Below are positions 546 through 21,043 of a DNA stretch of 59,708 nucleotides, piece by piece (within the stretch, counting starts at the first letter, position 1; every line of letters starts with the position of its first letter). The DNA is taken from positions 1-59,708 of the IMG/VR virus record IMGVR_UViG_3300017589_000117, one strand, 5' to 3'. The DNA is from a virus. Taxonomy: Duplodnaviria > Caudoviricetes. Below the pieces are notes generated by a model that saw only the letters and a program-made list of their open reading frames with translations, was not told where the DNA came from and did no database searches. Position numbers and translations under genes: made by a program.

Positions 546-1223
546 CTATTCTGACTCGTTCGTATTGTTACTCATTGTGTATAATTGTATTAAAGATAAG
601 CTGTTAGTAAAACTACTTACCTTTAATTCGTTTATGTGATTCTTTATAATGTCTTTACATAAAAGATATAACATCTTGGTATAAGCCACCTCACCTTCAG
701 GTAAATTATAATAGATAAAATGACCCTTAGAGAACGATAAGATTATTGACAATTTAGAATTAAGATAGACTTTAGAATTATCGCAGTATTTGGATTTTAC
801 TAACACTCTATCAACGACCTTCATTAAATTAAGTATATAATCTTTATCCTCAATACATGAGAAGTCATAATTACTATTATCATTTGAAGTTGACATACTA
901 ATTATTCCTTCTTTTAAATCATAATTACCTTCAACATCGATTATCTCTGACTTGTTAATACGGTTGTAATCTCTTATATATGAATGATAACATTTACTCA
1001 TATAACCAAGCCAGGAATGTATCTCTTTACCATTGTATATCTTCAAGTATAAATCTTGTGCCATTAAATGAGCGACCTGATCTGCAGCTTCTGTTGTTGA
1101 CATTAGATGTTTTCTTTTAATATATAGATAAGAGAGCTTGTAGATTGTTCTGTAAACTTCTGGGTCAGAAATATCTTGTTCTATTAGAACTTTTAGCTGT
1201 TTCTCTATATCTACTAATCTCAT
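546..1223 (-). CDS. putative sigma-factor-like protein (region 2-like)
   Basis: ADQVAHLMAQDLYLKIY...HSWLGYMSKCYHSYIRDYNR resembles sigma70/ECF region 2; coupled to the dUTPase gene by ATGA overlap. Confidence 0.4.
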   Translation of the reverse strand: MRLVDIEKQLKVLIEQDISDPEVYRTIYKLSYLYIKRKHLMSTTEAADQVAHLMAQDLYLKIYNGKEIHSWLGYMSKCYHSYIRDYNRINKSEIIDVEGNYDLKEGIISMSTSNDNSNYDFSCIEDKDYILNLMKVVDRVLVKSKYCDNSKVYLNSKLSIILSFSKGHFIYYNLPEGEVAYTKMLYLLCKDIIKNHINELKVSSFTNSLSLIQLYTMSNNTNESE

Positions 1224-1633
1224 GTCCCAGTACTTCCAACTCCATTGTCCGTTCTTAAATTGTCATAATGATCTACAAATTGAGCTTGTATAAATGGCAT
1301 TATAACAATTTGACAGATACGTGTTTTCTTCTCAACAAAGATATCTTCACCACTGTTAAAAGCAATAAGATGCCAACTTCCAGTGTATCCTGGATCTATT
1401 GGAGCAAGATTGAAAGAAACATTATTACCCATAACAGATGACCTTGGGAAGATATATCCAGCACATCCTTGTGGCAATTCAATACTGAAGCCTAATGTGA
1501 TAATATTCTTACCATATTTAATTATTATATCTTCTTGAGTAATTATGTCAGCACCAGCGTCAAAGTCGTGAGCATAGGATAAAAGATCAGAGCATCTTAA
1601 ATTAGGGTTATCAATGTTCACTTTCATTTTCAT
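1220..1633 (-). CDS. dut: trimeric dUTPase
   Basis: Motifs AGADI, PRSS, IDPGYTG, RICQ and RxxxGxGSTG all present. Confidence 0.95.
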   Translation of the reverse strand: MKMKVNIDNPNLRCSDLLSYAHDFDAGADIITQEDIIIKYGKNIITLGFSIELPQGCAGYIFPRSSVMGNNVSFNLAPIDPGYTGSWHLIAFNSGEDIFVEKKTRICQIVIMPFIQAQFVDHYDNLRTDNGVGSTGT

Positions 1634-1634
1634 T

Positions 1635-2819
1635 TTATTTACCTTCTTCTATAATTTCTTTTGACATTTCTAAAGCTTTTCTTACAATGACATCCATGTT
1701 GTAATACTTATAATCTCCAAGTCTTCCACCGAAAACAACTTGACCTCCATTAAAGGTTGCTTCCTCTCCTTTATATTTTAAGAAGAGTTCTTTATTTACT
1801 TTATCAGAGATTGGATAGTAAGCATTCCCAATATCTTTTAAATTATCTGAGGAGCTTTCCAAGGTTAGAACAGTAGTTCCATTGTTTACTGGGTTCTTCT
1901 TGAAATACTTATGCTCAATTGATCTTGTAATTGAGATATTACTAGATGTATAATTCATGACTGCTGTACCTTGATAGCTGTTGTAATCCATCTCTTGAGT
2001 GTTAAAGTTTAAACCTCTGAAATCCAAGACACCATGTTTGAACTTAAAGAACTCATCAATCCTGCCAGTATAGATTACTTTCTTTAATCCACCATCTCCT
2101 TTCATTGAACACTTATTATAATCAAGACCAAGATTTACTCTTATATTACCATGACATAAGATATTAGTAACAAGATCAGTATAACCATTTACAGGTATTC
2201 CTTGATACTCATCATCAAAATAATTGTTGTCATATGTAAATCTCACTGGTAATCTTGTTATAATTGAACCATCAAGCTCTGTACACTTTCTTCCCCACTG
2301 CTTCTCTGTATATCCTTTTATTAGCTTATTGTAGATAGTGGTTCCAACCAGTGAAATTGCCTTATTCTCCAAGTTATTAACAGAATGATCTATACTTGGA
2401 TCACCATTAAAGTCGTAAATCTCTTTTGAGATAATACTTTTAACTTTATCAGGATAAGGGGTATTAAATATTCTGCTGAAAGTGTTCATGTTAAAAGGTA
2501 AATTGTAGACCTCATAATTAAGACGTTGCTCATCTAAGAAAACAGCAATTGGACTATTAACATAGTTTTCAAATTCAGCGAACTTATTAAGGTAGTCCCA
2601 CTCTGTTTTACCAGAGTGGAATATGTGAGCACCAAACACATGAACATCGATGTCATTAACTTTTTCAGTATAAGCAGTCCCAGCAACATGAACTCGTCTA
2701 TCAATTACCAGACATCTTTTGCCACTCTCGGCAAGTTCTCTTGCAACAATTGCTCCATAGAGACCTGCACCAACAATTAGATAATCGTACCCATTAACTT
2801 CGTAATTTCCAAAGTCCAT
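1635..2819 (-). CDS. glf: UDP-galactopyranose mutase
   Basis: FAD-binding IVGAGLYG, GAHIFH, GYTEKQWG, RLPVRFTYDNNYF, YQGIP, TRSIEHKYF, GRLGDYKYYNMD. Confidence 0.95.
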   Translation of the reverse strand: MDFGNYEVNGYDYLIVGAGLYGAIVARELAESGKRCLVIDRRVHVAGTAYTEKVNDIDVHVFGAHIFHSGKTEWDYLNKFAEFENYVNSPIAVFLDEQRLNYEVYNLPFNMNTFSRIFNTPYPDKVKSIISKEIYDFNGDPSIDHSVNNLENKAISLVGTTIYNKLIKGYTEKQWGRKCTELDGSIITRLPVRFTYDNNYFDDEYQGIPVNGYTDLVTNILCHGNIRVNLGLDYNKCSMKGDGGLKKVIYTGRIDEFFKFKHGVLDFRGLNFNTQEMDYNSYQGTAVMNYTSSNISITRSIEHKYFKKNPVNNGTTVLTLESSSDNLKDIGNAYYPISDKVNKELFLKYKGEEATFNGGQVVFGGRLGDYKYYNMDVIVRKALEMSKEIIEEGK

Positions 2820-4270
2820 TAGACTTCCACATGAGTATAACTATTATTTCTTGCTTGATCTAATAATTTACCATCTTCCCAAATATTGAACTCGTATTGA
2901 TCTACAGATCTATATCCATTTTCTTTTTGCATTCTTCTTACTGCCTTCCATGTGATACAGCATTGTGGTAAATTTCTCTTCTCTCTGAAACTTAGCCATG
3001 GCTTTTCTCCATGTATCTCTTTCAACTTTTCTTGATGGGATCTAAATCTGTCCTGGATCTGTTCAAAGGGTTGTCCAGGTGCTCCCATTGCATCGCAACC
3101 ATATACAAGCCAAGAGAAAGTACAGACGTTAAATCCTCTATCAAGTACTCTGACAGTCATGTCAATATCATCTAGACCACAATCTTTGTTGTCATTGTAG
3201 AATAAATTATTTTCACACATTCCAGTTATATTTAAACAGAAAACTTGAGTAAGAGAACCACGACTTAGAGAATAAGATTTAACAGATTCACAGTAACCAT
3301 CCTTCCAACAGAAAGCAATTGGCATTCCACCAGAGATCATAACATTATCAGAAGCAACCGCTCTTTCCATTGCAATTTGCCACATTGCTAGAACCTTAGC
3401 AACAGGCTTGCCTTTCATTGGAGTTACATACTGAGACTTTGGATATCCGTCTGCTTTCATTCCTTCATGAGTATAAGTTAAATTGTTAACATCATCATCC
3501 ATTTGGAAAGCTAAAGGATAACCTTGTTTATATAACCACCGTTGAGACATTCTTCTTACAGCTCCAGCATTGCTTATTAACTCATCTGGGAAATCATGTA
3601 TTGTAACATACTTGTACTTCTGAGTTGCTTCAACATATTCTGCTTTCTGGCTTTCTCTTACAAAGACAATTACTGGCCAGTTTAATTCTTCATCCATCTC
3701 ATAGAATTTTAATCTCTCAAGAACTGGAAGTTCTGGACGGTTGTATCCTGGAATTGTTAGAGGAATCTTTCTATCTTTAACAATGTCATAAGCTTCTTCA
3801 AATAATTGATCAGACCACCACGTATCTTTACCAACAAGACCAACAATATGAGTGAAGTTAACATCGCTGCTTGCGAATATTTCTTCAACTCTCTTACTGA
3901 ATAAACCTCCATAGTATACAACTTTTTTGAATCCTTTTTCTACTATGTAGTTGGCGTCTTTTTCATTAAGAAACTCTAGTATGTAAAGAGTGTCAGTTTT
4001 TCTGTCGAACTTATTTCTGACTCTTGTGTTAGCTTCAGTCTTCTCAATTAGCTCTCTTAAGACATACTGAACACTATTAATATTACAGTTACTGCTTGGG
4101 CAGGTCTCATTAATTAACTTACAATTTACTTCATAGTCACAACCACAATGTAACATGGTATTGCCAGATTCAGACTTTAGCATTATGCTGTTAAAGTCAT
4201 TTAGACAGGTTGTTCTTAATCTAGCATACTCATATAATTCATTATAGATACTTACATGCACTTCGTTCAT
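2819..4270 (-). CDS. TET/JBP-associated-type (TAGT, GT-A fold) glycosyltransferase with N-terminal degenerate dCMP-deaminase-like domain
   Basis: IPGYNRP, VFVRESQ, GAVRR, FQMDDD (DxD) and DDIDMTVRVL motifs; N-terminal ~145 aa aligns by eye to ORF 5445..6029 (..GFKKVVYYG vs ..GFKHVVYGG). Confidence 0.7.
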   Translation of the reverse strand: MNEVHVSIYNELYEYARLRTTCLNDFNSIMLKSESGNTMLHCGCDYEVNCKLINETCPSSNCNINSVQYVLRELIEKTEANTRVRNKFDRKTDTLYILEFLNEKDANYIVEKGFKKVVYYGGLFSKRVEEIFASSDVNFTHIVGLVGKDTWWSDQLFEEAYDIVKDRKIPLTIPGYNRPELPVLERLKFYEMDEELNWPVIVFVRESQKAEYVEATQKYKYVTIHDFPDELISNAGAVRRMSQRWLYKQGYPLAFQMDDDVNNLTYTHEGMKADGYPKSQYVTPMKGKPVAKVLAMWQIAMERAVASDNVMISGGMPIAFCWKDGYCESVKSYSLSRGSLTQVFCLNITGMCENNLFYNDNKDCGLDDIDMTVRVLDRGFNVCTFSWLVYGCDAMGAPGQPFEQIQDRFRSHQEKLKEIHGEKPWLSFREKRNLPQCCITWKAVRRMQKENGYRSVDQYEFNIWEDGKLLDQARNNSYTHVEV

Positions 4271-4296
4271 TACAATTACACCTATTCTTTCTTTTA

Positions 4297-5379
4297 TTAT
4301 GTTGTTACTAATTGTTCAATCGTTGAAATGAAAGATAAATACTTGCCATTGATGTTCTTATCGACAAGATCATAAAATTTTGAAACTCTTGCCAGATAAT
4401 CTTGATCTGACATATTGCTAAGAATGTTTGGAAGTTTATCAAGATCGTCTTTATCCAGTACAATAGCAGACTTACCCTCTAGTAACCAGCTTGGCACAGA
4501 TTGTGAGCACAATACTGGAAGACATCCTGAGTTAAGTGCTTCTATTGTTACAAGTTCAAGTCTTCCTCTCATCTTTCTGTTCTTTGACTCTCTTTTTACG
4601 TAAACAAAGTCATAATGGAACATATGAGGTTTTAATAATGCTTCTAAATCTTCTGGCATGAATGGCTTTAAATCTGTCCAGAACTCCACATTAGTTGTAA
4701 GAACTTCTTTGAAATAAAAATAAGTCTTTCTATCCCCAGCAATAAAAGTTTCAATACCTGTACAGTGTAGGTCTTTTGAAATCTGAGCCAGTTCAAGAAC
4801 TCTCTTTCTATTAACCCATCTTGAGGTGCTTATAATACTTCTGTTGGTTGAATGTAGCTTTTCTTCAGCAAGATCTAAGATCTCTTCTTTACTCTTAATT
4901 AGACTGATGTAATTGAACTCAAAGTATTGTCCATTTCTTGGTAAGAGATATTCAAAATCAAGATGCATATCTTCTGAGTTTAACATTAGCAGACAATAAT
5001 TATCATGTTTTGTGAACTCATCGAAGTGATTGTACAGTTGTCCATCACGCTCTTCATTTATAACAATTGAGAACGGTGTTTCAAGTTCATCAAAGATATA
5101 ATCGTAAACATTGTAATCAACCATATCCTTCTTCTTGAATAAGAATCCAGGTGTTGAGAATATCAAAAAATCATAATAATTTAAAAATTCTCCAACACTT
5201 GTTGTAGCATCAGGATATTTTATTCCATCCAAGTCATGTTTTGTTTTAGGTTTTGTTGATACAATATCAACATCAAATTTTGAATATGTGTTAAGTAGTT
5301 GAGACATGTATAATGGTGCTGTAATGATACCAGCCATGTTTCTCTTGTCTGTATTAAATGTCACTATTCCAATTTTCAT
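4297..5379 (-). CDS. GT-B fold glycosyltransferase (putative DNA glycosyltransferase)
   Basis: N-terminal MKIGIV Rossmann strand; SRWVNRKR; LELVTIEALNSGCLPV (GT4-like nucleotide-sugar binding motif). Confidence 0.75.
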   Translation of the reverse strand: MKIGIVTFNTDKRNMAGIITAPLYMSQLLNTYSKFDVDIVSTKPKTKHDLDGIKYPDATTSVGEFLNYYDFLIFSTPGFLFKKKDMVDYNVYDYIFDELETPFSIVINEERDGQLYNHFDEFTKHDNYCLLMLNSEDMHLDFEYLLPRNGQYFEFNYISLIKSKEEILDLAEEKLHSTNRSIISTSRWVNRKRVLELAQISKDLHCTGIETFIAGDRKTYFYFKEVLTTNVEFWTDLKPFMPEDLEALLKPHMFHYDFVYVKRESKNRKMRGRLELVTIEALNSGCLPVLCSQSVPSWLLEGKSAIVLDKDDLDKLPNILSNMSDQDYLARVSKFYDLVDKNINGKYLSFISTIEQLVTT

Positions 5380-5397
5380 CCATTACTCCTTTAAATT

Positions 5398-5424
5398 TAG
5401 AGACAACTTTTACAGCTGTCTCTA
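5398..5424 (-). other. intergenic hairpin (terminator or processing/stability element)
   Basis: TAGAGACAGCT/AGTTGTCTCTA stem on the minus strand; weak U tail. Confidence 0.4.
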
Positions 5425-5444
5425 TTTACTAGACTTATCTTTTA

Positions 5445-6029
5445 TTACTTGTGACTGCAGTTTGCATCTTCAATAATCAGGTTATGTTCTTCAGTGGTCA
5501 TTGTGTGCAGCTCATGATCAACTTCTGGATACCAGATGATGTCCATATTATTATCAGATATAACTTTTTTCACATCATCTGAGATTTCTTGTCTCCCACC
5601 GTACACAACATGTTTGAATCCTGCTTCTGCTAAATGAGTAATACAATCAATACATGGATATCTTGTAACATACATTATACCAATTGATGTATCAACAGGC
5701 TTTCCTTTATACGATGTATCTTTCAACATGTTCACCATCTTAACTTCACAGTGGACACTGGCACAGAATGGTCTTGTCTCTTCACAGCTCTCGTAGATAC
5801 CTGTTACTTCTTGTTTATGACACTTGCCATCTTTTACACAATTTATGTTTTGACCATGACCACCACCACTGTTGGATGTTAGATATCTGGTCTGATCTGG
5901 AAGTTCATACAAACCACCAACCTGAACTTTTCTGCAGATGCTAAATTTCTTACTGAAATTATATGCTTCTTCTAGACACTCTTTATTGTATATGTCGTTC
6001 AAACATTTTTCTAATGAACTGTTACTCAT
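5445..6029 (-). CDS. dCMP deaminase
   Basis: SICRKVQVG, HCE (HxE) and YPCIDC (PCxxC) zinc motifs. Confidence 0.9.
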   Translation of the reverse strand: MSNSSLEKCLNDIYNKECLEEAYNFSKKFSICRKVQVGGLYELPDQTRYLTSNSGGGHGQNINCVKDGKCHKQEVTGIYESCEETRPFCASVHCEVKMVNMLKDTSYKGKPVDTSIGIMYVTRYPCIDCITHLAEAGFKHVVYGGRQEISDDVKKVISDNNMDIIWYPEVDHELHTMTTEEHNLIIEDANCSHK

Positions 6030-6055
6030 ATTTATATTACCTCTTCCCTTTTAAG

Positions 6056-6907
6056 TTAGATTAAAGAATTTGTCAACAGTTTTAATGCAGGATCATTTAC
6101 TTTATCAAATTGCTTGTCAGCACAATATTGGATATCTGCAAGGAAGCTTTCAGACATTCTTTCTTTTGGGTCAATCTCGAATACATTTGGGTTTTCAAGA
6201 TAAGTACCTGAAGAATCTTTGAAATCTGGCTCATACAGGTGTAAACTACCAACCATATGTTTGTACCATCCAATTTCAACTCCAAGTGTTTTTGCCAGTT
6301 CTAACTGGAACATTGTGAAGTTAAACAGATCATAAACAAAGCCTTTCCAGATGTCATTACTTCTCATGTAAACAATCATGTTAAGTTTTCCATCTCTTAG
6401 GATGAACTGCAGCGAACTTGTACATGGAACATCTTTTGTACCTTTATTAGCATTGATTGGAATTTGGATAACTCCTTGACGAGTGTCAGGATCTCTTTTC
6501 ATATCTGCAACGAGCTTGTCCCATTCTCCATTAAAAAGATGATAGCCATAACCACTGTTAACAGTTCCATCTGGATTAGCAATATGATCCCAGAAGTTGC
6601 TGTAGACAGCGATGTCTTCTAGCTTATTGGAAGCACTCTTATACCACAGGTATTCTCCACATAAGTATCTTGCTGACATTTTTCGTATATCCGAATACAC
6701 GATGTTGTCTGCAGGATTTAAGATGGTAATTGCAGCACCAAGCACTTCTTTGACTTTCATTCCTCTTGGGGCAGACTCCTTACCATAAACGGACAACCCA
6801 GCGTAAATACCCTCAAATGCATCATTAACATTGTAGTATGTAGCAGTATCAAAGTTCTCTTTTGCACCTCTGTATAAATCACCGTAACTTCTTTCTACAC
6901 TTAACAT
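6056..6907 (-). CDS. thymidylate-synthase-family enzyme, dCMP hydroxymethylase-like
   Basis: Catalytic DVPC, RSNDIWKGFVYD (Asp at the position of E. coli TS Asn177 / T4 gp42 Asp179), GSLHLY. Confidence 0.85.
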   Translation of the reverse strand: MLSVERSYGDLYRGAKENFDTATYYNVNDAFEGIYAGLSVYGKESAPRGMKVKEVLGAAITILNPADNIVYSDIRKMSARYLCGEYLWYKSASNKLEDIAVYSNFWDHIANPDGTVNSGYGYHLFNGEWDKLVADMKRDPDTRQGVIQIPINANKGTKDVPCTSSLQFILRDGKLNMIVYMRSNDIWKGFVYDLFNFTMFQLELAKTLGVEIGWYKHMVGSLHLYEPDFKDSSGTYLENPNVFEIDPKERMSESFLADIQYCADKQFDKVNDPALKLLTNSLI

Positions 6908-6950
6908 TTTTCTCCTCCATATAATTTGAATTTTTGAACAATTTAATTAG

Positions 6951-7040
6951 CGAACCCAGTCGGATTTTTACCGACACCTGAAGCGTCATTTCGGATAATC
7001 CCTAATCGGCTTTCCATGCTACTGATTACATCATGGGTTC
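6951..7040 (-). ncRNA. tRNA-like element A with expanded anticodon arm
   Basis: Perfect 7-bp acceptor GAACCCA/TGGGTTC, D stem ATGT/GCAT, T stem GTCGG/CCGAC with loop TAAAAAT; ~24-nt anticodon loop; no encoded CCA. Confidence 0.6.
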
Positions 7041-7048
7041 ATGTTAAT

Positions 7049-7124
7049 TGGAGCAAGACAAAGGATTTGAACCTTCTGTCTCCAAGAAGTATACTTGGTG
7101 TTCTGACCATTGAACTATTCTTGC
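7049..7124 (-). tRNA. tRNA-like element B (76 nt, nominal anticodon TAC, non-canonical loop)
   Basis: Full cloverleaf: GCAAGA/TCTTGC, D arm GTTC-AATGGTCA-GAAC, CCAAG-TATACTT-CTTGG, GAAGG-TTCAAAT-CCTTT, encoded CCA; lacks U33 and purine 37. Confidence 0.75.
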
Positions 7125-7131
7125 TTAGACA

Positions 7132-7228
7132 ATCCCCCAGAGTATCCACAATATTTTAACTGGTAAAACTTGGACTGATCAATTTCCACTAATACCAATT
7201 TCAATCGTGACGTCCTTTACTGGGGGAT
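7132..7228 (-). ncRNA. structured RNA element C (non-tRNA)
   Basis: 9-bp closing stem ATCCCCCAG/CTGGGGGAT and internal GGAC/GTCC; lies inside the RNA array. Confidence 0.45.
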
Positions 7229-7233
7229 CTCTT

Positions 7234-7304
7234 CGGGGTTTGTGGGAATCGAACCCACGCTATCTCCACTATCGCAGACAGTTCTACCATTAAACTAGCA
7301 TCCC
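7234..7304 (-). tRNA. pseudo-tRNA element D
   Basis: Canonical D arm TAGTTTAATGGTAGAAC and T arm GTGGG-TTCGATT-CCCAC; mismatched acceptor stem; ~10-nt anticodon loop. Confidence 0.65.
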
Positions 7305-7309
7305 ATAAG

Positions 7310-7379
7310 AGATGGGGAAGGATTTTCACCTACAACTCCCTCTTGCACATTAGAGAGGTTTTAATTAAACTACCCATCA
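7310..7379 (-). tRNA. pseudo-tRNA element E
   Basis: GATGGG/CCCATC acceptor, short D arm GTTT-AATTA-AAAC, TCTCT/AGAGG stem with 8-nt loop AATGTGCA, T arm with TGAAAAT loop. Confidence 0.6.
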
Positions 7380-7390
7380 AAATTTAAATA

Positions 7391-7495
7391 AATATCCTTC
7401 TAACAGCAGTTCGTTATGCTACCATATAATTTTATGGGAACCAGGATTCCAACATTGCATAAATCTGGTATATCCTGATTCGTTAGAAGGGTATT
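7391..7495 (-). ncRNA. four-way-junction structured RNA element F
   Basis: P1 CCTTCTAAC/GTTAGAAGG, P2 GAATCAGGAT/ATCCTGGTTC, P3 CCATA/TATGG and P4 AGCA/TGCT abut with almost no linker. Confidence 0.55.
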
Positions 7496-7504
7496 TTAAT
7501 ATGT

Positions 7505-7530
7505 AAGGTTTTAAAGTCTTTTCCTTGACT
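7505..7530 (-). ncRNA. compact H-type pseudoknot candidate
   Basis: AGTC-AAGG-AAAA-GACT-TTAAAA-CCTT: S1 AGTC/GACT, S2 AAGG/CCTT, A-rich loop 3. Confidence 0.4.
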
Positions 7531-7542
7531 AACTTAAATTAT

Positions 7543-7616
7543 TGGGACAGGGGTCAGGGATTTGAACCCCAATACCACCACGAGAGGAGGTGTTTTGCAT
7601 TAAACTAACCCACTGT
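7543..7616 (-). tRNA. pseudo-tRNA element G with encoded CCA
   Basis: Extended acceptor ACAG(T)GGGT/ACCCCTGT, D arm GTTT-AATGCA-AAAC, 6-nt anticodon loop TCTCGT, T loop TTCAAAT, 3' CCA. Confidence 0.65.
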
Positions 7617-7620
7617 ATAC

Positions 7621-7754
7621 TGGGCAAAGAGTAGGGACTTGAACCCCAATACTATCAGCTATAAACCCACCTCTAATTATCTAGTCTTAGAGATTTCAGC
7701 GTAATAGACCTATCCCACCATTACCTCGTCAAATAATGATTTGAATCTCTTGCC
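7621..7754 (-). ncRNA. 134-nt tRNA-like RNA H (acceptor + T arm + large insert)
   Basis: GGCAAGAG/CTCTTTGCC stem ending CCCA, T arm TGGGG-TTCAAGT-CCCTA, hairpin TCAAAT/ATTTGA, long interrupted stem in place of the anticodon arm. Confidence 0.6.
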
Positions 7755-7769
7755 ATATTATTTTTCTGA

Positions 7770-7808
7770 CTTACACAATTAACAACGTTTAAACTAAATG
7801 AAAACATC
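7770..7808 (-). promoter_or_regulatory. phage promoter motif (drives RNA array and modification genes)
   Basis: GATGTTT-N14-CGTTGTTAATTGTGTAAG. Confidence 0.8.
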
Positions 7809-8588
7809 AAGATATTTCTTATATTCCTCATTATTTATTTCTCTGAATATGCAGTTTTCATTATTTAAAGATAATTCAGGATAAATTTTTGAGATCTTAT
7901 GATTAGTATTAATATTATCTACCAGTGATCTTGTCTGGCGAAGACTAAGAGTATAACCAAGTTCCACTAAAGCATTAAATAATCCTTTTATTGACACTGC
8001 TAGTATGCTGTTATTTATTACAAATTTCTTTGATCTAGTCATAATTGCTTCTTCGGTACTGAATGATAATATTCCTCCATGATTCTTCTTATTTGATGCT
8101 AATTGTCTATCTCTAGATTCTTTAGTGTGAACTGCCAGAATTCCACCATTATTTCTTCTATTCGTTTCTAATGACTTCTTTATAGACTCTTTAGTATGCA
8201 TTGCTAAAACTCCACCGTGATTATTCCTATTATTTTCGTACATTTCTTTAGTATGTAAATGTTTTGCACTCCTCTCTCCTCTGATCATATTATACATCAT
8301 ATGTCCATTTGACTCATCCCAGAACTTCTTGATATAGTAATCTTCTCTATCTCTAAGTTCTCTGACTGTAAATTCTTTGTCATCCATAAATTCCAAGGTT
8401 GAGAGTATGAAATCATCTTCTCCATATTTTCTGATATCTTGATATAGTGCTGCATCATTACCTTCTTTAGAACATCTTAGATGATTAAATCCATTGTAAG
8501 GACTATTCCATCTGTATTCTTTATCGATTTTAGTGCTTCCAATATAGATCTTCTTAGTAGTTTTGCACAGTATTTTATAAATTTCCAT
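7794..8588 (-). mobile_element. free-standing GIY-YIG homing endonuclease (Seg-like)
   Basis: MEIYKI...KIYIGST...R motif, repeated HTKES/GGIL units; ATG 8588 after RBS; paralogue at 49222. Confidence 0.85.
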
Positions 8589-8610
8589 ATAAAACTGTCC
8601 TTTCAAATTA

Positions 8611-8645
8611 TATGACTTGTATAAGTTTTAATTATACAAGTCATA
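8611..8645. other. perfect 14-bp inverted repeat upstream of the endonuclease
   Basis: TATGACTTGTATAA-gttttaa-TTATACAAGTCATA. Confidence 0.7.
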
Positions 8646-8652
8646 ACATAAA

Positions 8653-9492
8653 TTATAGTATAAAAGTTTCATTTAAGGCTTTGTCATCTAAATAGACACT
8701 TGCAAATACTTTTCTTGGACCACCTTCTAGGTTATTCTTGATTTCATCAATATTTTCATTGACTGCATCAAAATATAAACCATGATCAGCACAGAAATTA
8801 CAAGCATCTATTAGAGCGTCATCTGTTCTACATGTCCACAGGATTAATTTAGCTCCTTCAGCTTTTTCAATCTTAAGTCTTGCCATTAAACCTAAGTTTG
8901 GCTTAGCATGTTGAATATGTGGGAAACAATCTGTTGCCAGACATCCATCAAAATCGACTGCCAGAATTCTTGGGAGATCTTTAAAACTAAAGTTCCTTGC
9001 AATATGGTTTATATCAAGTTCTTTTGCAAGATCATACTCATTATTATGATACTTAACATTTGGAACTGAAACCGTATCGAAGATGAATCTAAATTTAAGG
9101 TCAAGCTCTTTCAAGTATTCTAATGTGTAATAGCTATCATCGCTATCCTTCTTACAGTTAACAAGACATTTCTTAAGATCAGAATAAACATAGATAAGAT
9201 CTGCACCAATATCTTTTATTAGGAAATCAAGATCTATTAAAGAACTTAGATCTAACCATCCTTTCGACTTTCTTTCAGAAGCAGTCTGATAAACAAACTG
9301 CCCATACATGAATCGGTCAAAAATTAGATTTTCTTCACTCAGTAATAAGTCTTTAAAATATTTGTAAGTATTGTCAGTATGTCTACTGCAATGAACCAAT
9401 CTAAAATCTGGGTTATCTTTCAGAATCTTTTCAGCTAATGTAGATTTTCCAGCACCATCAACGCCTTCTAGTATAATCTTTTTGCCTATCAT
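8653..9492 (-). CDS. dNMP/thymidylate kinase fused to HAD-family phosphatase domain
   Basis: P-loop EGVDGAGKST and DR motif; C-terminal AVDFDG, LWTCR and YLDDK HAD motifs. Confidence 0.85.
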   Translation of the reverse strand: MIGKKIILEGVDGAGKSTLAEKILKDNPDFRLVHCSRHTDNTYKYFKDLLLSEENLIFDRFMYGQFVYQTASERKSKGWLDLSSLIDLDFLIKDIGADLIYVYSDLKKCLVNCKKDSDDSYYTLEYLKELDLKFRFIFDTVSVPNVKYHNNEYDLAKELDINHIARNFSFKDLPRILAVDFDGCLATDCFPHIQHAKPNLGLMARLKIEKAEGAKLILWTCRTDDALIDACNFCADHGLYFDAVNENIDEIKNNLEGGPRKVFASVYLDDKALNETFIL

Positions 9493-9503
9493 TTAAGTAT
9501 CTC

Positions 9504-10547
9504 CTACAGGTCGATTTTCTTAATGTATGATAATCTTTGAAGAATTACATCTTCTCCGTTAACATTTATAACAGTGTTTTCAATGAACTTATTCTTACTT
9601 CTTGGTAATGGTTGTTTTTCTGACCATTCATAAGAACCTTTTTTATTTGACATCTCAATTGCCATGATAATAGATCTTGAGAGGAATCGAATACTTTTAA
9701 GTCTCTTGTTCAGCTCATCTCTGTAAGTTATGGCTGAGTCAATAGTTGGATACATATCTTTTAAAGCTTCAATACTGATTTCTATAACCTTATTGTCAAC
9801 CAAACGATAAACAATACAGCCAACTTCGAAACTTTCTAAGCTGTTTGCATGTATCCTAACACCTTTATCAGTTCTTTTCTCATTGTAAATATCTGGGATT
9901 CTGTCATTAACAGTTGGAACCATCCCTTGATCTTTATATTCTTTGATAATCTTTTTAAGAGCTGAGACACTTTCCATTAAGTACTCTTCTTCTACTAAGT
10001 TCTTGTAAAGACCAATCTTAATTGGTTGTGCCCAGTTTAATGAGATTACAGGAATTCCAGAGAAGTCAATCTTATATAAGAAGTCTTCGCTAAACATGTG
10101 ATTTTCTGGAACTATTACACCATTATAGTATAAGAGCTTTGCAGCCTTAAGATCATCAAAGGATTCTTGATTTAATTTAGCAACTACATATTCCATTGCC
10201 AGCTCTCCATCACGAATTACAGTATATTGTCGGAACACTTTCTTATGAACCAGAGAAACTGTTTCATCATAGTCTGATTGAACTTCTACAACGATATCAA
10301 CAAGACCAACTAGAGAGAAATTAAATCTTTCTTGATTAGAAGAAATGCTTAATACTCTTACTGGCATTCCAGATTCTTTTGGGAACATGTGAATTAAAGG
10401 ATCTTTTGAATAACTTTTTGATCCATACTTGTAATGATCAGGAATATAAATTACTGTATCACCACTTTCGATAAGTGTTCTAAGGATATTCAATACATTT
10501 AAATTTGGACCTTCTGGTTTTAATCCTGTTCCAATAAACTTTTTCAT
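9504..10547 (-). CDS. hypothetical protein
   Basis: 347-aa ORF with RBS, first gene after a promoter motif. Confidence 0.7.
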   Translation of the reverse strand: MKKFIGTGLKPEGPNLNVLNILRTLIESGDTVIYIPDHYKYGSKSYSKDPLIHMFPKESGMPVRVLSISSNQERFNFSLVGLVDIVVEVQSDYDETVSLVHKKVFRQYTVIRDGELAMEYVVAKLNQESFDDLKAAKLLYYNGVIVPENHMFSEDFLYKIDFSGIPVISLNWAQPIKIGLYKNLVEEEYLMESVSALKKIIKEYKDQGMVPTVNDRIPDIYNEKRTDKGVRIHANSLESFEVGCIVYRLVDNKVIEISIEALKDMYPTIDSAITYRDELNKRLKSIRFLSRSIIMAIEMSNKKGSYEWSEKQPLPRSKNKFIENTVINVNGEDVILQRLSYIKKIDL

Positions 10548-10626: not shown

Positions 10627-11175
10627 TTATAAATAATTAACTCTATTTTCGCTGTCAGTCCGAAAGAGTTCTGGATGTAATTGAGCATAGTCTGAAATAC
10701 AGATGGCATCTGCTATGTCATCACTCTGCTTCATTCTTCCTGGATTCCTTTTTATAGGGTTTGGAACATCTAAATTTGGGTTATACTTATTTACTGCATA
10801 TAGAATTGACTCCTTCTTATCTGTAGTAACACCACCAAGAATTTCAGCTTTCCATGATCTAACATCAACTTCAGCAATATTTGCTAAATCAGAGAAGTTT
10901 GTTATTATTGCACATTGTACTTTACATAAGGATGTTATATTTGCAAGTGGAGACACAAATCTACCACGATATAACTTAATCCGTTCAAATAAAATTGAGT
11001 CTACATTATGTAGACTCAATAATCTTGAAATTTCAATTACTAACTTATCTCGATGCTTTAATGGTGGTTCATCATCGTTATATGGAATGAAAGAAGATTC
11101 TAACAGAATATCTTTTTCAGTTACTGCAAATCCATTCATTGTCTTGCCACCAATGTCTATTCCCAATGTTATCAT
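10627..11175 (-). CDS. RuvC-like Holliday junction resolvase
   Basis: LGIDIG, acidic FE, WK and DDIADAICI motifs. Confidence 0.85.
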   Translation of the reverse strand: MITLGIDIGGKTMNGFAVTEKDILLESSFIPYNDDEPPLKHRDKLVIEISRLLSLHNVDSILFERIKLYRGRFVSPLANITSLCKVQCAIITNFSDLANIAEVDVRSWKAEILGGVTTDKKESILYAVNKYNPNLDVPNPIKRNPGRMKQSDDIADAICISDYAQLHPELFRTDSENRVNYL

Positions 11176-12068
11176 TATTCACCAATCTCTATGTGAACAG
11201 TGTTAAACATATCTACAATATTGCCCATGAGATTGTATCTCATCTCTGAGGTTGAATTCTTTGCAAACTCTTCATTAACTAAGTCAACGTACATTGTATA
11301 TTGACCATCATCTCCCATGTAAAAAGTTTCCCAGTCTGCAGCAGTCAATAGATCCTTAACTCTTAGCTGTTTTAATGCAAGATTATCGAAGCTAACAATT
11401 TTAAATCCTTTTATAATATTTACCAAAGAGTTGTTGAGAATAATTATCCCATCCCTTATATCTTGGTTCATATAATCAGCACCTCTGCCAAATTGTTTGT
11501 ATCCAAGAATTAATATCTTTAGACCATTGTTACTGTATTTCATGATCTCCTCAACAGGAGTGTATCCAGCAATAACATGGAGAACTACATCTGGTAATAA
11601 TTTAACTCTGTCTAAGAACTCTTGATCAAAAGTACTGACCGAGATTCCAAGACCTCTTATCAGTTTCTGATCAATTAATAACTTTGTAAATCCTTCATTC
11701 TCCATAAAGGTTTCCTGTTTTATTGTTATGTTTGACAGTACACCTTTAGTTTTCATCATATATAGAAAGTTAAGAAGTCCAGGATGTGTATATGGATCTC
11801 CACCACCGATAGCGAGTTCAGTGTATGGGGTTAATGAATCAATGAAACGTACATTAGATAGATTACCATGTTGACCGTCTAAACCAGACTCTTCATGGCA
11901 CATTGGACAGTTAAACTTACAGTAATTTGTAATTTTTAAGTCAATAGACTCTGGAAATTCTGGTCTAAAGTTGTCTAAGTCATTCTCTCTAATTTTAGTT
12001 CCATCTTCATAAATCTTTACATTGTAGTTCCCATTAGTATAAGAACCAATTAGTGCTGAATTATACAT
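11175..12068 (-). CDS. radical SAM protein
   Basis: CKFNCPMC (CxxxCxxC) and GGGDP. Confidence 0.9.
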   Translation of the reverse strand: MYNSALIGSYTNGNYNVKIYEDGTKIRENDLDNFRPEFPESIDLKITNYCKFNCPMCHEESGLDGQHGNLSNVRFIDSLTPYTELAIGGGDPYTHPGLLNFLYMMKTKGVLSNITIKQETFMENEGFTKLLIDQKLIRGLGISVSTFDQEFLDRVKLLPDVVLHVIAGYTPVEEIMKYSNNGLKILILGYKQFGRGADYMNQDIRDGIIILNNSLVNIIKGFKIVSFDNLALKQLRVKDLLTAADWETFYMGDDGQYTMYVDLVNEEFAKNSTSEMRYNLMGNIVDMFNTVHIEIGE

Positions 12069-12091
12069 TGTATTATGTCTCCTTCTAAATT

Positions 12092-12649
12092 TTAGTGATT
12101 GTCATTATCAATAATCATTTCAATTCCACTGTTGAACAAGAATTCTTCAACAGTAACACCTTCAGAGTCAAGAAAGTTTTTTAGAGTTCCTGGATTGCTT
12201 TGATGATCGATGTATCCAGTATCGCTATTAATGTAGTATGTCTCATCATCTCTGAACTGTCCGATTTTAAAGAGCTCTTTATCTACCTTCACTCCACGAC
12301 AGTACTTCTTGAATACTGAGTTTAACAATTTAAAACCTTCTGTATTTTTATATAGCTTTAATACAGATTCTTTATCGTCAGTTGATGAGATTTCTGCTGA
12401 GTTAAAGTCTATCTCTCCGAGAATAATGGTTGCGAGATAACTTAACTTGCTAGATGGATCTGACAGAACATCCCATCCCCATCCGAATTCCCCAAATTCA
12501 AGCATGACCTTATTTTTACCTGTCTTTGCCATGTGGTCGACTCTTTTGATATAATCATCTTCAGTCAATTCAATTCTGTCTTTGCTGATGGTCACACTGT
12601 GTGAACTACTTGAATTAGTTTCAAAAACACCTCTTCTAATTTGTTTCAT
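12092..12649 (-). CDS. phage protein with N-terminal FETNSSSSHS motif
   Basis: MKQIRRGVFETNSSSSHS, GEFGWG, KLSYL and GYIDHQS motifs; immediately upstream of the radical SAM gene. Confidence 0.7.
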   Translation of the reverse strand: MKQIRRGVFETNSSSSHSVTISKDRIELTEDDYIKRVDHMAKTGKNKVMLEFGEFGWGWDVLSDPSSKLSYLATIILGEIDFNSAEISSTDDKESVLKLYKNTEGFKLLNSVFKKYCRGVKVDKELFKIGQFRDDETYYINSDTGYIDHQSNPGTLKNFLDSEGVTVEEFLFNSGIEMIIDNDNH

Positions 12650-13076
12650 TTTCTCTTTCCTCCTTAATAAATTTAGCTGTTGAATATATCACATTGTTAA
12701 CGATTAAATTAATATGAGTTTCATCTTCAATATCAATAAAATCGTCCATCATATGATTACATGAAAAAGACTTTTGATTTTTAAGTATCATTCTGAAAAC
12801 AAAAGTCGATCTAGGGAACCTTTGGTCACTAACGTAACTCTCTGAGTATAGCAGTAGACTCTCTTTCTTACTGGCTTTATGTCCGATTATTACACAGATA
12901 CTCGGATAGTTGCTATTCTTATTTGAGATATTGATAAATAAATTATCAACACACTCACAATAGTTATTATTTACACAGCGAGAGATGCATTCATTAACTC
13001 TGTCCGAGATAACTTCTGCCAAAATATTAAAATCAGATTCTTCTGGCTCACGTCTACTAAGAATTTCGTTAAGCAT
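12636..13076 (-). CDS. hypothetical protein
   Basis: ORF track; start moved to the ATG after GGAGG. Confidence 0.55.
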   Translation of the reverse strand: MLNEILSRREPEESDFNILAEVISDRVNECISRCVNNNYCECVDNLFINISNKNSNYPSICVIIGHKASKKESLLLYSESYVSDQRFPRSTFVFRMILKNQKSFSCNHMMDDFIDIEDETHINLIVNNVIYSTAKFIKEERENETN

Positions 13077-19490: not shown

Positions 19491-19801
19491 ATATTATTCC
19501 AAGCTTCAGCAATTTGTACTTCTTCTTCAAGACTTAGATAATTTTCAATTTTATATTCTTTACTGACAACAGAATAATCTAAGATGTTGATGCCATTTTT
19601 TCTGACAACTTCAAAGATTAATGCATTATTGTCCTTAATGACTTGATGTGCAGTGTCATAATTTAGATTGTTCTGTATTTCAAGATACTTAATATCTTGA
19701 AAGAATTCATTCAACTGAAACCCTGAGGTTATTCGGAGAGCACACCTCCCTTCTCCGAATAAAGTTAGTAATCCATTTTCTCTTGTTAATTCTTCTGCCA
19801 T
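19487..19801 (-). CDS. hypothetical protein
   Basis: ORF coupled to both neighbours. Confidence 0.6.
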   Translation of the reverse strand: MAEELTRENGLLTLFGEGRCALRITSGFQLNEFFQDIKYLEIQNNLNYDTAHQVIKDNNALIFEVVRKNGINILDYSVVSKEYKIENYLSLEEEVQIAEAWNNI

Positions 19802-20382
19802 TATTTTACACCATCTTCCAAGTATAATGCACTCCAGTAATCTGCTTGTTGAAGAAGCGTTAACAGCTTATTCTTTTTAAAGCTTGACTTGTTTCCATTC
19901 CAAGGCTCATTGTGATAAGCAATTGCACACCATTCTTGTTCTGTAAGCTTTAGGTGTTTCTGGATCAAGTATAGAGATCTTGTCTCATGTTCCATAAAAA
20001 CAATTTGATCATTGTAAAGGTAAGGTGGTGTTGCAGTATATCCATATTGTTTCTGCTTATCAGTTGGCTCTTTAACAATGTATTGCTCTTGACCTTCAAC
20101 TCCTGCTTTACCTGCATCATGTAATAATCCGACAATTACACAAGAAGCATTAGAAATCTCAGGAGCACTTATTTTCTTGAGCTTTAATAACTGTTGTGTT
20201 ACTGAACAGGAATGAAATAATAATCCTCCTGGTACTGATAGATGGTACTTACTGCTTGCTGGTGAAGATAGGTAAGCAGTCTTCTGTTCCAGGAATGTCA
20301 TTAGGTTACCAAAATCTTCTTTTCTTTCATCATCAACAATAGATTTTAAATTGATGTAAACGTCACTTAGTTGTTGTTCCAT
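19801..20382 (-). CDS. HD-domain phosphohydrolase
   Basis: PASSKYH...GGLLFHS, LLHDAGK, AIAYH, QQAD. Confidence 0.88.
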   Translation of the reverse strand: MEQQLSDVYINLKSIVDDERKEDFGNLMTFLEQKTAYLSSPASSKYHLSVPGGLLFHSCSVTQQLLKLKKISAPEISNASCVIVGLLHDAGKAGVEGQEQYIVKEPTDKQKQYGYTATPPYLYNDQIVFMEHETRSLYLIQKHLKLTEQEWCAIAYHNEPWNGNKSSFKKNKLLTLLQQADYWSALYLEDGVK

Positions 20383-21004: not shown

Positions 21005-21043
21005 CCAATACAAGTAACAACGTCTGTAAATATCTAAAACATC
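21005..21043 (-). promoter_or_regulatory. phage promoter motif
   Basis: GATGTTT-N14-CGTTGTTACTTGTATT. Confidence 0.7.

Follow-up and report, generated by a model that had tools for sequence, protein, structure and literature searches.

The stretch of DNA analysed in this study (hereafter the window) is one whole viral contig of IMG/VR, the 59,708-bp record IMGVR_UViG_3300017589_000117, which corresponds to 37% of the genome by the CheckV estimate. On its minus strand, from position 6907 down to position 1220, six genes are packed in the order thymidylate synthase (TS) homolog, dCMP deaminase, GT-B glycosyltransferase (GT), TAGT GT-A glycosyltransferase, UDP-galactopyranose mutase (Glf) and dUTPase, with intergenic gaps of 26, 65, 26, -1 and 1 nt. 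An earlier note on this DNA had described the set as a co-directional, tightly packed candidate operon for DNA hypermodification with a furanose sugar. All six open reading frames (ORFs) are indeed present on the minus strand where it had placed them, with gaps between -1 and 65 nt, and its gene identifications are borne out by Pfam matches, PDB matches and fold models. We propose, with moderate confidence, that the operon directs DNA hypermodification and that its product is DNA carrying galactofuranose (Galf) on glycosylated 5-hydroxymethylcytosine (hmC); that it represents some pyrimidine DNA-glycosylation system is considered highly probable.

The first gene (6056-6907, minus strand) encodes a TS-superfamily enzyme of 283 amino acids (aa; PF00303, E = 1.6e-18), predicted to be a dCMP 5-hydroxymethylase of the T4 gp42 type. 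In the phmmer ranking of PDB sequences, the CMP hydroxymethylase MilA (1.2e-30) and T4 dCMP hydroxymethylase (3.6e-18) stand above the best true TS (2.6e-14). Twelve positions near the substrate C5 were compared in an alignment of the window protein with E. coli ThyA, T4 gp42, RB69 gp48, RL38J1_216 and the SP-10 dUMP hydroxymethylase, and all 12 were identical between the window protein and T4 gp42 (D143, C146, T147, M165, R166, S167, N168, D169, G173, D177, H207 and Y209 in ThyA numbering), including the catalytic C146 and the nucleotide-binding R166, S167, H207 and Y209. According to the signature rules given in the accessible text of PMC13326640, N177D indicates a cytosine substrate, an acidic residue at position 143 a non-methyl product, and D169N the 5-hydroxy-dCMP synthases; an acidic residue in place of ThyA L143 admits water, leading to the hydroxymethyl product. 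Position 177 is D in the window protein, T4 gp42 and MilA, and N in E. coli ThyA and the SP-10 enzyme; position 143 is D as in T4 gp42; and position 169 is D in the window protein and T4 gp42, in contrast to the diagnostic N of RB69 gp48 and RL38J1_216. Positions 168 and 173 are also gp42-like, unlike those of the 5-hydroxycytosine (5hoC) enzymes. Because the signature is of the gp42 type, with neither D169N nor a kept N177, the protein is read as a dCMP hydroxymethylase rather than a 5hoC synthase or a dUMP enzyme, and the dCMP-type hydroxymethylase named in the earlier note holds on both the 12 positions and the PDB ranking. A glycosylated 5hoC, as in the Rhizobium phage RL38JI and in RB69 and DLP3, would have a precedent in RL38JI, which combines a TS homolog, GTs and Glf and carries galactose as the base-proximal sugar (accessible text of PMC13326640), but with D169, on which this reading was rejected, and with the gp42-like positions 168 and 173, it is hardly credible for the window.

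Among cultured phages the closest relatives of the TS homolog, after those of Agathobaculum phages, are the homologs of Enterococcus phages VPE25, VFW and 9183 at 35-37% identity (36.7% for VPE25 and VFW), all of which share the gp42-type signature. The DNA of VPE25 and VFW is resistant to bisulfite and MspI and is cut by PvuRts1I, fitting glycosylated hmC, as described in the accessible part of PMC4999554.

The TAGT protein of 483 aa (4270-2819, minus strand) consists of two domains. The C-terminal TAGT GT-A domain (residues ~166-483; 2819-3775, minus strand; phrog_842) matches PF20691 over residues 170-391 with 36.7 bits, above the Pfam gathering cut-off of 27.5 bits, and its DDD motif (D258-D260) is invariant in all 29 aligned relatives. 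An AF2 model of the whole protein, made with the 29 relatives, gave a pLDDT of 89.3 and a pTM of 0.91. In the BFVD search the domain matched phage proteins with a TAGT domain best (E 4.5e-17, TMt 0.83), and rank 16 for the protein was taken by a T-even-type beta-glucosyl-HMC-alpha-glucosyltransferase; the PDB search gave GT-A enzymes of a general kind at low TM, with RmlT and TarP, which act on teichoic acid, at the head. The label of a TAGT-type GT-A enzyme is therefore right, both by the Pfam score and by the fold matches. The TAGT of T6-like phages is credited with the addition of the second glucose on glucosyl-hmC (accessible part of PMC13390438).

The deaminase-fold N-terminal domain of the same protein (residues 1-~165; 3776-4270, minus strand) matches the S. 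mutans dCMP deaminase 2hvv by Foldseek (TMt 0.66) and aligns to the intact deaminase domain of a homolog in L004, a locus from a viral genome that is complete at 98,224 bp and bears terminal repeats. Both the HxE and the PCxxC motif are replaced in the window protein, indicating by motif a catalytically dead deaminase. The family of such proteins, with 32 matches in a collection of 5.8 billion proteins, of which 29 were aligned, includes 15 intact deaminase-TAGT fusions carrying HxE and PCxxC, while the motifs are missing from the other 14, the window protein included; this family of fusions explains the deaminase-like N-terminus in the window. A metagenome scan with the TAGT alignment found only 3 short loci, and the IMG/VR scans gave 1 and 2 loci. 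In the window the dead domain is made up for by a separate intact deaminase gene. Welded as it is to the TAGT domain (pTM 0.91), the dead domain is most likely a structural or cytosine-nucleotide-binding leftover of an ancestral fusion.

The separate gene (5445-6029, minus strand) encodes a zinc deaminase of the dCMP-deaminase family (194 aa; weak PF14437/PF00383 matches, MafB19/dCMP_cyt_deam; phrog_174), in which the HxE and PCxxC motifs are intact, the best PDB matches are the dCMP deaminases 2hvv and 4p9c, and to which the deaminase part of the L004 fusion is 37% identical. The last gene of the operon (1220-1633, minus strand) encodes a trimeric dUTPase of 137 aa (PF00692, E = 1.1e-17, residues 17-136); all 55 PDB matches listed are dUTPases, the alignment to 7dlv reaches the C-terminal G-STG motif, and in Enterococcus phage 9183 the dUTPase encoded after the TS homolog shares 38% identity with the window protein. 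Deaminase and dUTPase would together supply dUMP to a thymidylate synthase, presumably that of the host, and keep uracil out, in the role that the T4 annotation assigns to cd and gp56.

The same genes may also be read as a route to 5-hydroxymethyluracil (hmU), in which the hmdCMP made by the TS homolog is converted by the deaminase into hmdUMP and a Galf-containing sugar is put on hmU by TAGT and the GT-B enzyme, giving a furanose analogue of base J. The order TS-deaminase-GT-GT-Glf-dUTPase resembles the gene set of hmU phages, and the window phage is related to Bacillus phage SP-15, the DNA of which is presumably modified on a thymine analogue; moreover, searches of the window (37% of the genome), complete L004 and Lactobacillus phage ATCCB found neither thymidylate synthase nor ThyX. 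The fusion of a deaminase to TAGT in 15 of the 29 family members suggests a common substrate, and this fusion in half of the family, retained with a dead domain by the remaining members, keeps the hmU route alive. The loss of the catalytic deaminase residues from 14 of the 29, however, speaks against it, as does the module of ATCCB, in which no deaminase was found. T4, by its annotation, likewise joins gp42, dCMP deaminase and dUTPase activity and yet makes hmC, and Actinomycetia phage DSL-LC01 pairs its TS homolog and deaminase with a MazG-like pyrophosphatase, following the T4-type logic of dCTP exclusion. With modified cytosine reported for VPE25 and VFW of the same TS clade (accessible part of PMC4999554), the hmU route is judged distinctly unlikely, and hmC is retained as the preferred base.

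The GT-B gene (4297-5379, minus strand) encodes a protein of 360 aa for which Pfam, PHROG and PDB sequence searches gave no match; Pfam applied to its 32-member family gave just three marginal single-member matches, and the 32-member profile gave only marginal GT4 matches in the PDB. Its AF2 model (pLDDT 93.6) predicts a two-Rossmann GT-B fold of the GT4-like type, and the designation of the earlier note as a GT-B glycosyltransferase is right. A total of 54 relatives were found among 1.84 billion representatives, and the only phage homologs found by tblastn are those of Bacillus phage SP-15 (SP15_153; 33% identity) and Listeria phage LIS04 (32%), over 96-98% of the length. By Foldseek against the PDB, HepE, BshA and MshA are best by E (about 1e-11), and T4 alpha-glucosyltransferase (1y8z/1xv5) shows the highest TMq listed, 0.69-0.71. 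As there is no detectable sequence homology to the T4 enzyme, the protein is assigned to the SP15_153 family of GT4-like GT-B enzymes and not to the alpha-glucosyltransferases. SP15_153 and its LIS04 counterpart stand among genes for UDP-glucose dehydrogenase, GalU, GTs, a TagF-like enzyme and phosphomannomutase, which we take to be the DNA sugar-modification cluster of SP-15, the DNA of which is presumably sugar-modified. Some candidates for relatives of the GT-B enzyme were rejected: the GT of ATCCB is a T4 beta-GT homolog with no sequence relation to it, and the ORFs of 380 aa and 459 aa that follow Glf in L004 gave about 1% in hhalign against the 360-aa GT family, with no PHROG and no meaningful Pfam match.

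The Glf gene (1635-2819, minus strand), which at its start has 1 nt in common with the TAGT stop codon, encodes a UDP-galactopyranose mutase of 394 aa (PF03275, 224.5 bits, E = 1.4e-66; FAD/NAD Rossmann domain PF13450). Full-length PDB alignments (residues 11-390) to the C. jejuni (4mo2, 4.9e-104) and E. coli (1i8t, 6.5e-99) enzymes show the loop and C-terminal motifs to be conserved. As to specificity for UDP-Gal or UDP-GalNAc, the two Glf positions that would correspond to Arg59 and Arg168 of C. jejuni UDP-GalNAc mutase are H and T in the window and H and K in E. coli Glf. Glf is the sole sugar-nucleotide enzyme found in the window, complete L004 and ATCCB, and the furanose form of the donor is therefore its evident purpose. 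Genes of the epimerase family and for sugar nucleotidyltransferases were not found in any of the three, leaving the arabinofuranose offered by the earlier note as an alternative sugar unsupported, and this reading was set aside. A search for TET likewise gave no match in the window, L004 or ATCCB, but was uninformative because the control genomes were silent as well. No gene for a membrane-associated or polyprenol-linked glycan was recognized among the 40 window ORFs scanned against Pfam.

Related loci showed that the combination of a gp42-type TS, a DNA-type GT and Glf recurs in at least five other, unrelated phage lineages. In L004 the genes for PolA, a DUF1599-HAD fusion, the TS homolog, the deaminase-TAGT fusion and Glf stand in a row and overlap, the Glf gene overlapping that of the deaminase-TAGT fusion, and the identities to the window proteins are 51% for the TS homolog, 41% for deaminase-TAGT and 40% for Glf. 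A 394-kb contig (L073) carries a kinase-TS fusion, TAGT (PF20691, 3.8e-14), a T5orf172 protein, a 348-aa protein of no known kind and Glf within 6 kb. On a 300-kb contig (L032), a protein of 685 aa (8010-10067) consists of Glf followed by 315 residues resembling TAGT (hmmsearch 1.9e-7 in a 20-sequence set; hhalign 72%, E 3.4e-5, 247 columns, with the DDD motif aligned), and is a probable Glf-TAGT fusion, possibly of the Rosetta-stone kind; its gene is followed by those for a deaminase and then a TS homolog. In Lactobacillus phage ATCCB, a kinase, the TS homolog, a homolog of T4 beta-glucosyltransferase (31%, E 5e-49) and Glf are encoded in a row, with an HAD-like gene 2 kb further; a text term search of the description paper of this phage returned no mention of the gene set. 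DSL-LC01 carries kinase-TS-deaminase and, from 7 kb downstream, GT-Glf-hypothetical-MazG. A distant Glf, 29% identical to that of the window, is found in Aeromonas Tulanevirus phages and Stenotrophomonas phage IME13; in Aeromonas phage Aes012 it is followed by two unannotated genes of ~350 aa between motA and asiA (5992-9266 of the segment L109), the gp42-type hydroxymethylase being encoded elsewhere in the genome. Such phages may represent cultured viruses in which hmC bears a sugar not yet described. The TS homologs of L004, L073, L032, ATCCB, DSL-LC01 and Aes012 all carry the gp42 signature, with E for D at position 143 in L032. In L004, 3 kb downstream of Glf, we also noted a choline/aminoglycoside-kinase-like gene (11757-12800; PF01633, 1.1e-5, below the 29-bit Pfam cut-off).

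As to the partner of Glf, it is TAGT and not the GT-B enzyme that accompanies Glf in L004, L073 and probably L032, and the transfer of Galf is for this reason assigned to TAGT; in ATCCB the partner is the beta-GT homolog rather than TAGT. T6 TAGT and T4 beta-GT are inverting enzymes, and such enzymes would yield beta-Galf, the usual natural linkage, from UDP-alpha-D-Galf. TAGT stands beside the TS homolog in L004, beside kinase-TS fusions in two further loci (L008 and L009), and a few kb away from one in L006 and L073; in L006, L008 and L009 it is a stand-alone protein. Phage Glf genes are found in other surroundings as well: of the eight GenBank phage Glf contexts inspected, three have a gp42-type TS and a GT near or adjoining Glf, whereas three human-faecal phage scaffolds and an Enterococcus record carry Glf without the module, and on one Glf-bearing human-faecal scaffold an ordinary thymidylate synthase (L143, N177) lies 9 kb away. 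The link of Glf to DNA enzymes is thus specific and not general among phage Glf genes.

Several points weigh against galactofuranosylated hmC as the product. All the evidence is computational and concerns an uncultured viral contig. No MazG-type dCTPase turned up in the 37% of the genome that the window represents, nor in the L004 and ATCCB genomes, which are complete, so that full replacement of cytosine is not assured, and the presence of deaminase, dUTPase and TS homolog in one operon also fits the classical hmU logic. The Glf-TAGT fusion of L032 depends on the hhalign value of 72% and the 1.9e-7 obtained in the 20-sequence set, with no Pfam match. Finally, the best PDB neighbours of the TAGT domain are GT-A enzymes that do not act on DNA (RmlT, TarP and FKRP; TM 0.29-0.35), the stretches of L006, L008 and L009 that were analysed contain TAGT but no Glf, and a TS-family gene was found within 8 kb in only 2 (L032 and L073) of the best 80 of at least 591 IMG/VR Glf loci, two further loci of the 80 having a weak deaminase-like match only.

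The first of these last three observations might be taken to mean that neither GT acts on DNA and that the GTs and Glf glycosylate teichoic acid or protein amid genes of nucleotide metabolism, the more readily as the GT-B enzyme is similar to numerous GT4 enzymes for small molecules and lipids and a TagF-like gene is also found in the SP-15 cluster. Against such a target, the TAGT domain scores above the Pfam cut-off and has TAGT proteins as its best viral matches, the T-even-type beta-glucosyl-HMC-alpha-glucosyltransferase among them, it is fused to a nucleotide deaminase domain and adjoins kinase-TS fusions in L008 and L009 or lies a few kb from one in L006 and L073, and the GT-B model scores highest by TM against T4 alpha-GT; we regard a target other than DNA as very improbable.

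The other two observations bear on the donor. TAGT needs no Galf in general, since it occurs without Glf in L006, L008 and L009, and an ordinary donor such as UDP-glucose could serve for glycosyl-hmC while Glf is used elsewhere, for instance in remodelling of host envelope glycans (teichoic acid or exopolysaccharide) in the course of infection. The known TAGT and T4-type GTs indeed use UDP-glucose (accessible parts of PMC13390438 and PMC8256090), few of the IMG/VR Glf loci lie near TS homologs as counted above, and some Glf genes are located at prophage ends, as in S. suis prophages. The gene arrangement argues otherwise: Glf overlaps the TAGT gene in both the window and L004, directly adjoins a DNA-type GT in ATCCB and DSL-LC01, and is apparently fused to a TAGT-like domain in L032, whereas the window ORFs scanned include no membrane-associated or polyprenol-linked glycan genes to be served by Glf. 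An ordinary donor is thus considered unlikely. The recurrence of the module and the probable Glf-TAGT fusion lend further weight to the supposition of the earlier note that Glf may provide the donor for a DNA glycosyltransferase.

For galactofuranosylated hmC as the preferred product, the following pathway is proposed. The TS homolog, to judge from its family signatures, would convert dCMP into 5-hydroxymethyl-dCMP, which the kinase domain encoded upstream of the operon, together with host kinases, would raise to hmdCTP for polymerisation into phage DNA. Glf would convert UDP-galactopyranose of the host into UDP-galactofuranose, and the TAGT GT-A enzyme is the most likely transferase of galactofuranose onto hmC-DNA; the T4-alpha-GT-like GT-B enzyme may add a second sugar, or the first. 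The predicted product is a mono- or di-glycosyl-hmC containing Galf, which would shield the DNA from restriction and CRISPR nucleases.

Among the closest known counterparts is the gentiobiosyl-hmC system of T2 and T6, composed of gp42 dCMP hydroxymethylase, gp1 kinase, alpha-glucosyltransferase and a TAGT-family beta-glucosyl-HMC-alpha-glucosyltransferase; it shares with the window a gp42-type TS, a GT-B enzyme (in the window matching T4 alpha-GT by TM), a TAGT GT-A enzyme, and dCMP deaminase and dUTPase functions. In contrast to T2 and T6, the window adds a Glf gene translationally coupled to TAGT, its GT-B enzyme is like T4 alpha-GT in fold but not in sequence, its TAGT carries a dead deaminase domain, a MazG-type dCTPase is missing from the genes found, and it belongs to another phage lineage (SP-15-like) with another probable host. 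By analogy, the window operon would work like the T2/T6 system of gp42, alpha-GT and TAGT with a mutase added.

The use of Glf has its counterpart in RL38JI and the Pootjesviridae, for which the accessible text of PMC13326640 (July 2026) proposes that a phage Glf, 43% identical to that of the window, supplies UDP-Galf for a cytosine modified at C5 by way of a TS homolog, galactose being the base-proximal sugar on 5-hydroxycytosine; for the making of UDP-Galf by the phage mutase the paper refers to its Supplementary Fig. S11B. The base of RL38JI is galactosyl-(glucosyl)n-5-hydroxycytosine with an ether link, made with a D169N TS homolog, whereas the window enzyme has the hydroxymethylase signature; the RL38JI GTs are GT-B types (Table 1 of the same paper) and not TAGT; and Glf lies ~60 kb from the TS homolog in RL38JI, compared with one operon in the window. 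A furanose on modified cytosine is also found in the arabinofuranosyl-5-hydroxycytosine of RB69 and DLP3, which share with the window a TS homolog, a kinase, GTs and the phrog_1238 HAD-like protein; their arabinofuranose donor, however, is made from arabinose 5-phosphate (Ara5P) through an isomerase, a phosphatase, a kinase and a nucleotidyltransferase without a mutase, the base is 5hoC, and a search of the window turned up none of their sugar genes. Enterococcus phages VPE25, VFW and 9183, with glycosylated cytosine, a T4 beta-GT homolog and a WbbI-like protein, resemble the window in their TS homologs, in the order kinase-TS-dUTPase-HAD and in a Gram-positive host, but 9183 has an NDP-sugar pyrophosphorylase-like protein instead of Glf, and TAGT is not reported for the three phages. 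SP-15 (Thornevirus), related to the window by its topoisomerase (~46% aa identity) and the SP15_153-type GT-B (33%), differs in having no Glf and no relative of the TS homolog detectable by protein search, and in its sugar cluster.

The window system is thus most likely a variant of the DNA-shielding systems of T-even phages and RL38JI, as read from its genes alone. The statement of the earlier note that no Galf-modified base has been described is partly outdated: in the accessible parts of the two papers, UDP-Galf made by a phage Glf is already proposed for the galactosyl-5-hydroxycytosine of RL38JI (PMC13326640), and a Galf-transferase acting on the glycosylated DNA of VPE25 was speculated in 2016 (PMC4999554). 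The RL38JI proposal lessens the novelty of the window system. Galf on hydroxymethylcytosine, the Glf-TAGT or Glf-beta-GT module and the deaminase-TAGT fusions gave no description in a full-text literature search, which left most subscription journals outside its scope.

Upstream of the operon, the dNMP kinase that the earlier note had placed ~1.7 kb away is present (8653-9492, minus strand), but is not a plain kinase, the 279-aa protein being a fusion of a P-loop kinase with an HAD-like domain (Pfam Thymidylate_kin P-loop match; phrog_761, phrog_1238 and phrog_24386). Its N-terminus resembles P-loop dNMP/thymidylate kinases (YorR kinase 2axp in the PDB, 1e-3, residues 6-106), and its C-terminus (~165-279) is an HAD-like phosphatase domain (phrog_1238/24386; 2obb, 1.5e-10, residues 176-272). 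The HAD-like domain of phrog_1238 recurs in clusters for pyrimidine hypermodification, in the L004 DUF1599 fusion, RB69p051, ATCCB_0052 and 9183_ORF046, with coordinates 3945-4757 in L004, 10000-10356 in L010, 6246-6590 in L022 and 5709-6095 in L019. Direct BLAST of the window domain against RB69p051 was not significant, although both match phrog_1238. Table 1 of PMC13326640 gives the RB69 and DLP3 members as predicted phosphatases of arabinose-5-phosphate. Its fusion partners, a dNMP kinase in the window and DUF1599 in L004, both in clusters without the arabinose pathway, suggest a nucleotide-level role, and the label of arabinose-5-phosphate phosphatase may fail in such clusters.

Between the kinase and TS genes stands a GIY-YIG homing endonuclease gene (7794-8606, minus strand; PF01541 5.8e-6; phrog_19446/314), which is a mobile passenger outside the pathway; no group I intron was detected around it by Rfam. 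The 886-nt spacer upstream of the TS gene (6908-7793) contains a tRNA-Val(TAC) (7049-7124, minus strand; ARAGORN; Rfam RF00005, 48.1 bits) and several tRNA-like remnants with T-arm-like motifs, called only at relaxed settings, at which ARAGORN gave seven candidates including a possible tRNA-Glu. The spacer may be a decaying tRNA cluster.

The window has a G+C content of ~32%, and megablast of the operon against 50,697 phage records gave no match. Genes lie on the minus strand up to ~46 kb and on the plus strand beyond. The sign of the GC skew changes at ~46000 (from about -0.2 to +0.28), coinciding exactly with the switch of gene orientation, and the plus-strand arm contains many small ORFs. 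The replication genes include those for PolA with an N-terminal domain like uracil-DNA glycosylase (UDG), NAD ligase, SbcCD, UvsX, a DnaB-like helicase and primase. The type II topoisomerase shows ~46% aa identity to its counterparts in SP-15 and LIS04 (both Thornevirus), in Bacillus phage HSE3 and in a phage of Streptococcus agalactiae; by this sequence SP-15 appears to be the closest phage lineage, and the window phage is likely a large myophage-type virus of a low-G+C Gram-positive host. The GyrB-like large subunit of the topoisomerase (984 aa; 42150-45104, minus strand) carries an intein (PF14890, residues 432-791) between its GyrB and Toprim domains, and its phage homologs align in two pieces covering ~63% of the protein. 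The family A DNA polymerase (21043-24519, minus strand) carries the N-terminal domain of the uracil-DNA-glycosylase superfamily (PF03167, 1.7e-23), and the polymerase of L004 (80-3772) has a weaker PF03167 domain (3.9e-5, just below the Pfam cut-off). An HD-domain phosphohydrolase (PF01966; phrog_28876), which could be a nucleotide hydrolase for pool control, and a weak radical-SAM-like protein (23.7 bits, under the cut-off) were also found, with coordinates listed jointly as 19801-20382 and 11175-12068 (both minus strand).

On a wider scale we suggest, more tentatively than for the window itself, that natural DNA includes a base not yet described, galactofuranosyl-5-hydroxymethylcytosine, alone or in a disaccharide, which a widespread module of gp42-type hydroxymethylase, Glf and TAGT or beta-GT produces in phages of Firmicutes, Actinobacteria and Proteobacteria; that the TAGT family includes DNA galactofuranosyltransferases; and that the fused deaminase is a module for cytosine-nucleotide recognition or channelling, with catalytic activity in half of the members. 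Sugars on cytosine are the classic means by which phages protect their DNA from restriction enzymes and CRISPR nucleases, and cytosines so decorated are themselves the target of type IV restriction; each new sugar alters which defences work. The module is present in phages recorded with named hosts, namely ATCCB, the Aeromonas Tulanevirus phages and DSL-LC01, and the deaminase-TAGT and Glf-TAGT fusions offer handles on the coupling of nucleotide-level and DNA-level steps. If the proposal is true, hmC bearing a hexose in furanose form would add a new chemistry to DNA bases, the TAGT family would gain a new donor, and Glf, an enzyme of the cell wall, would be linked to DNA metabolism.

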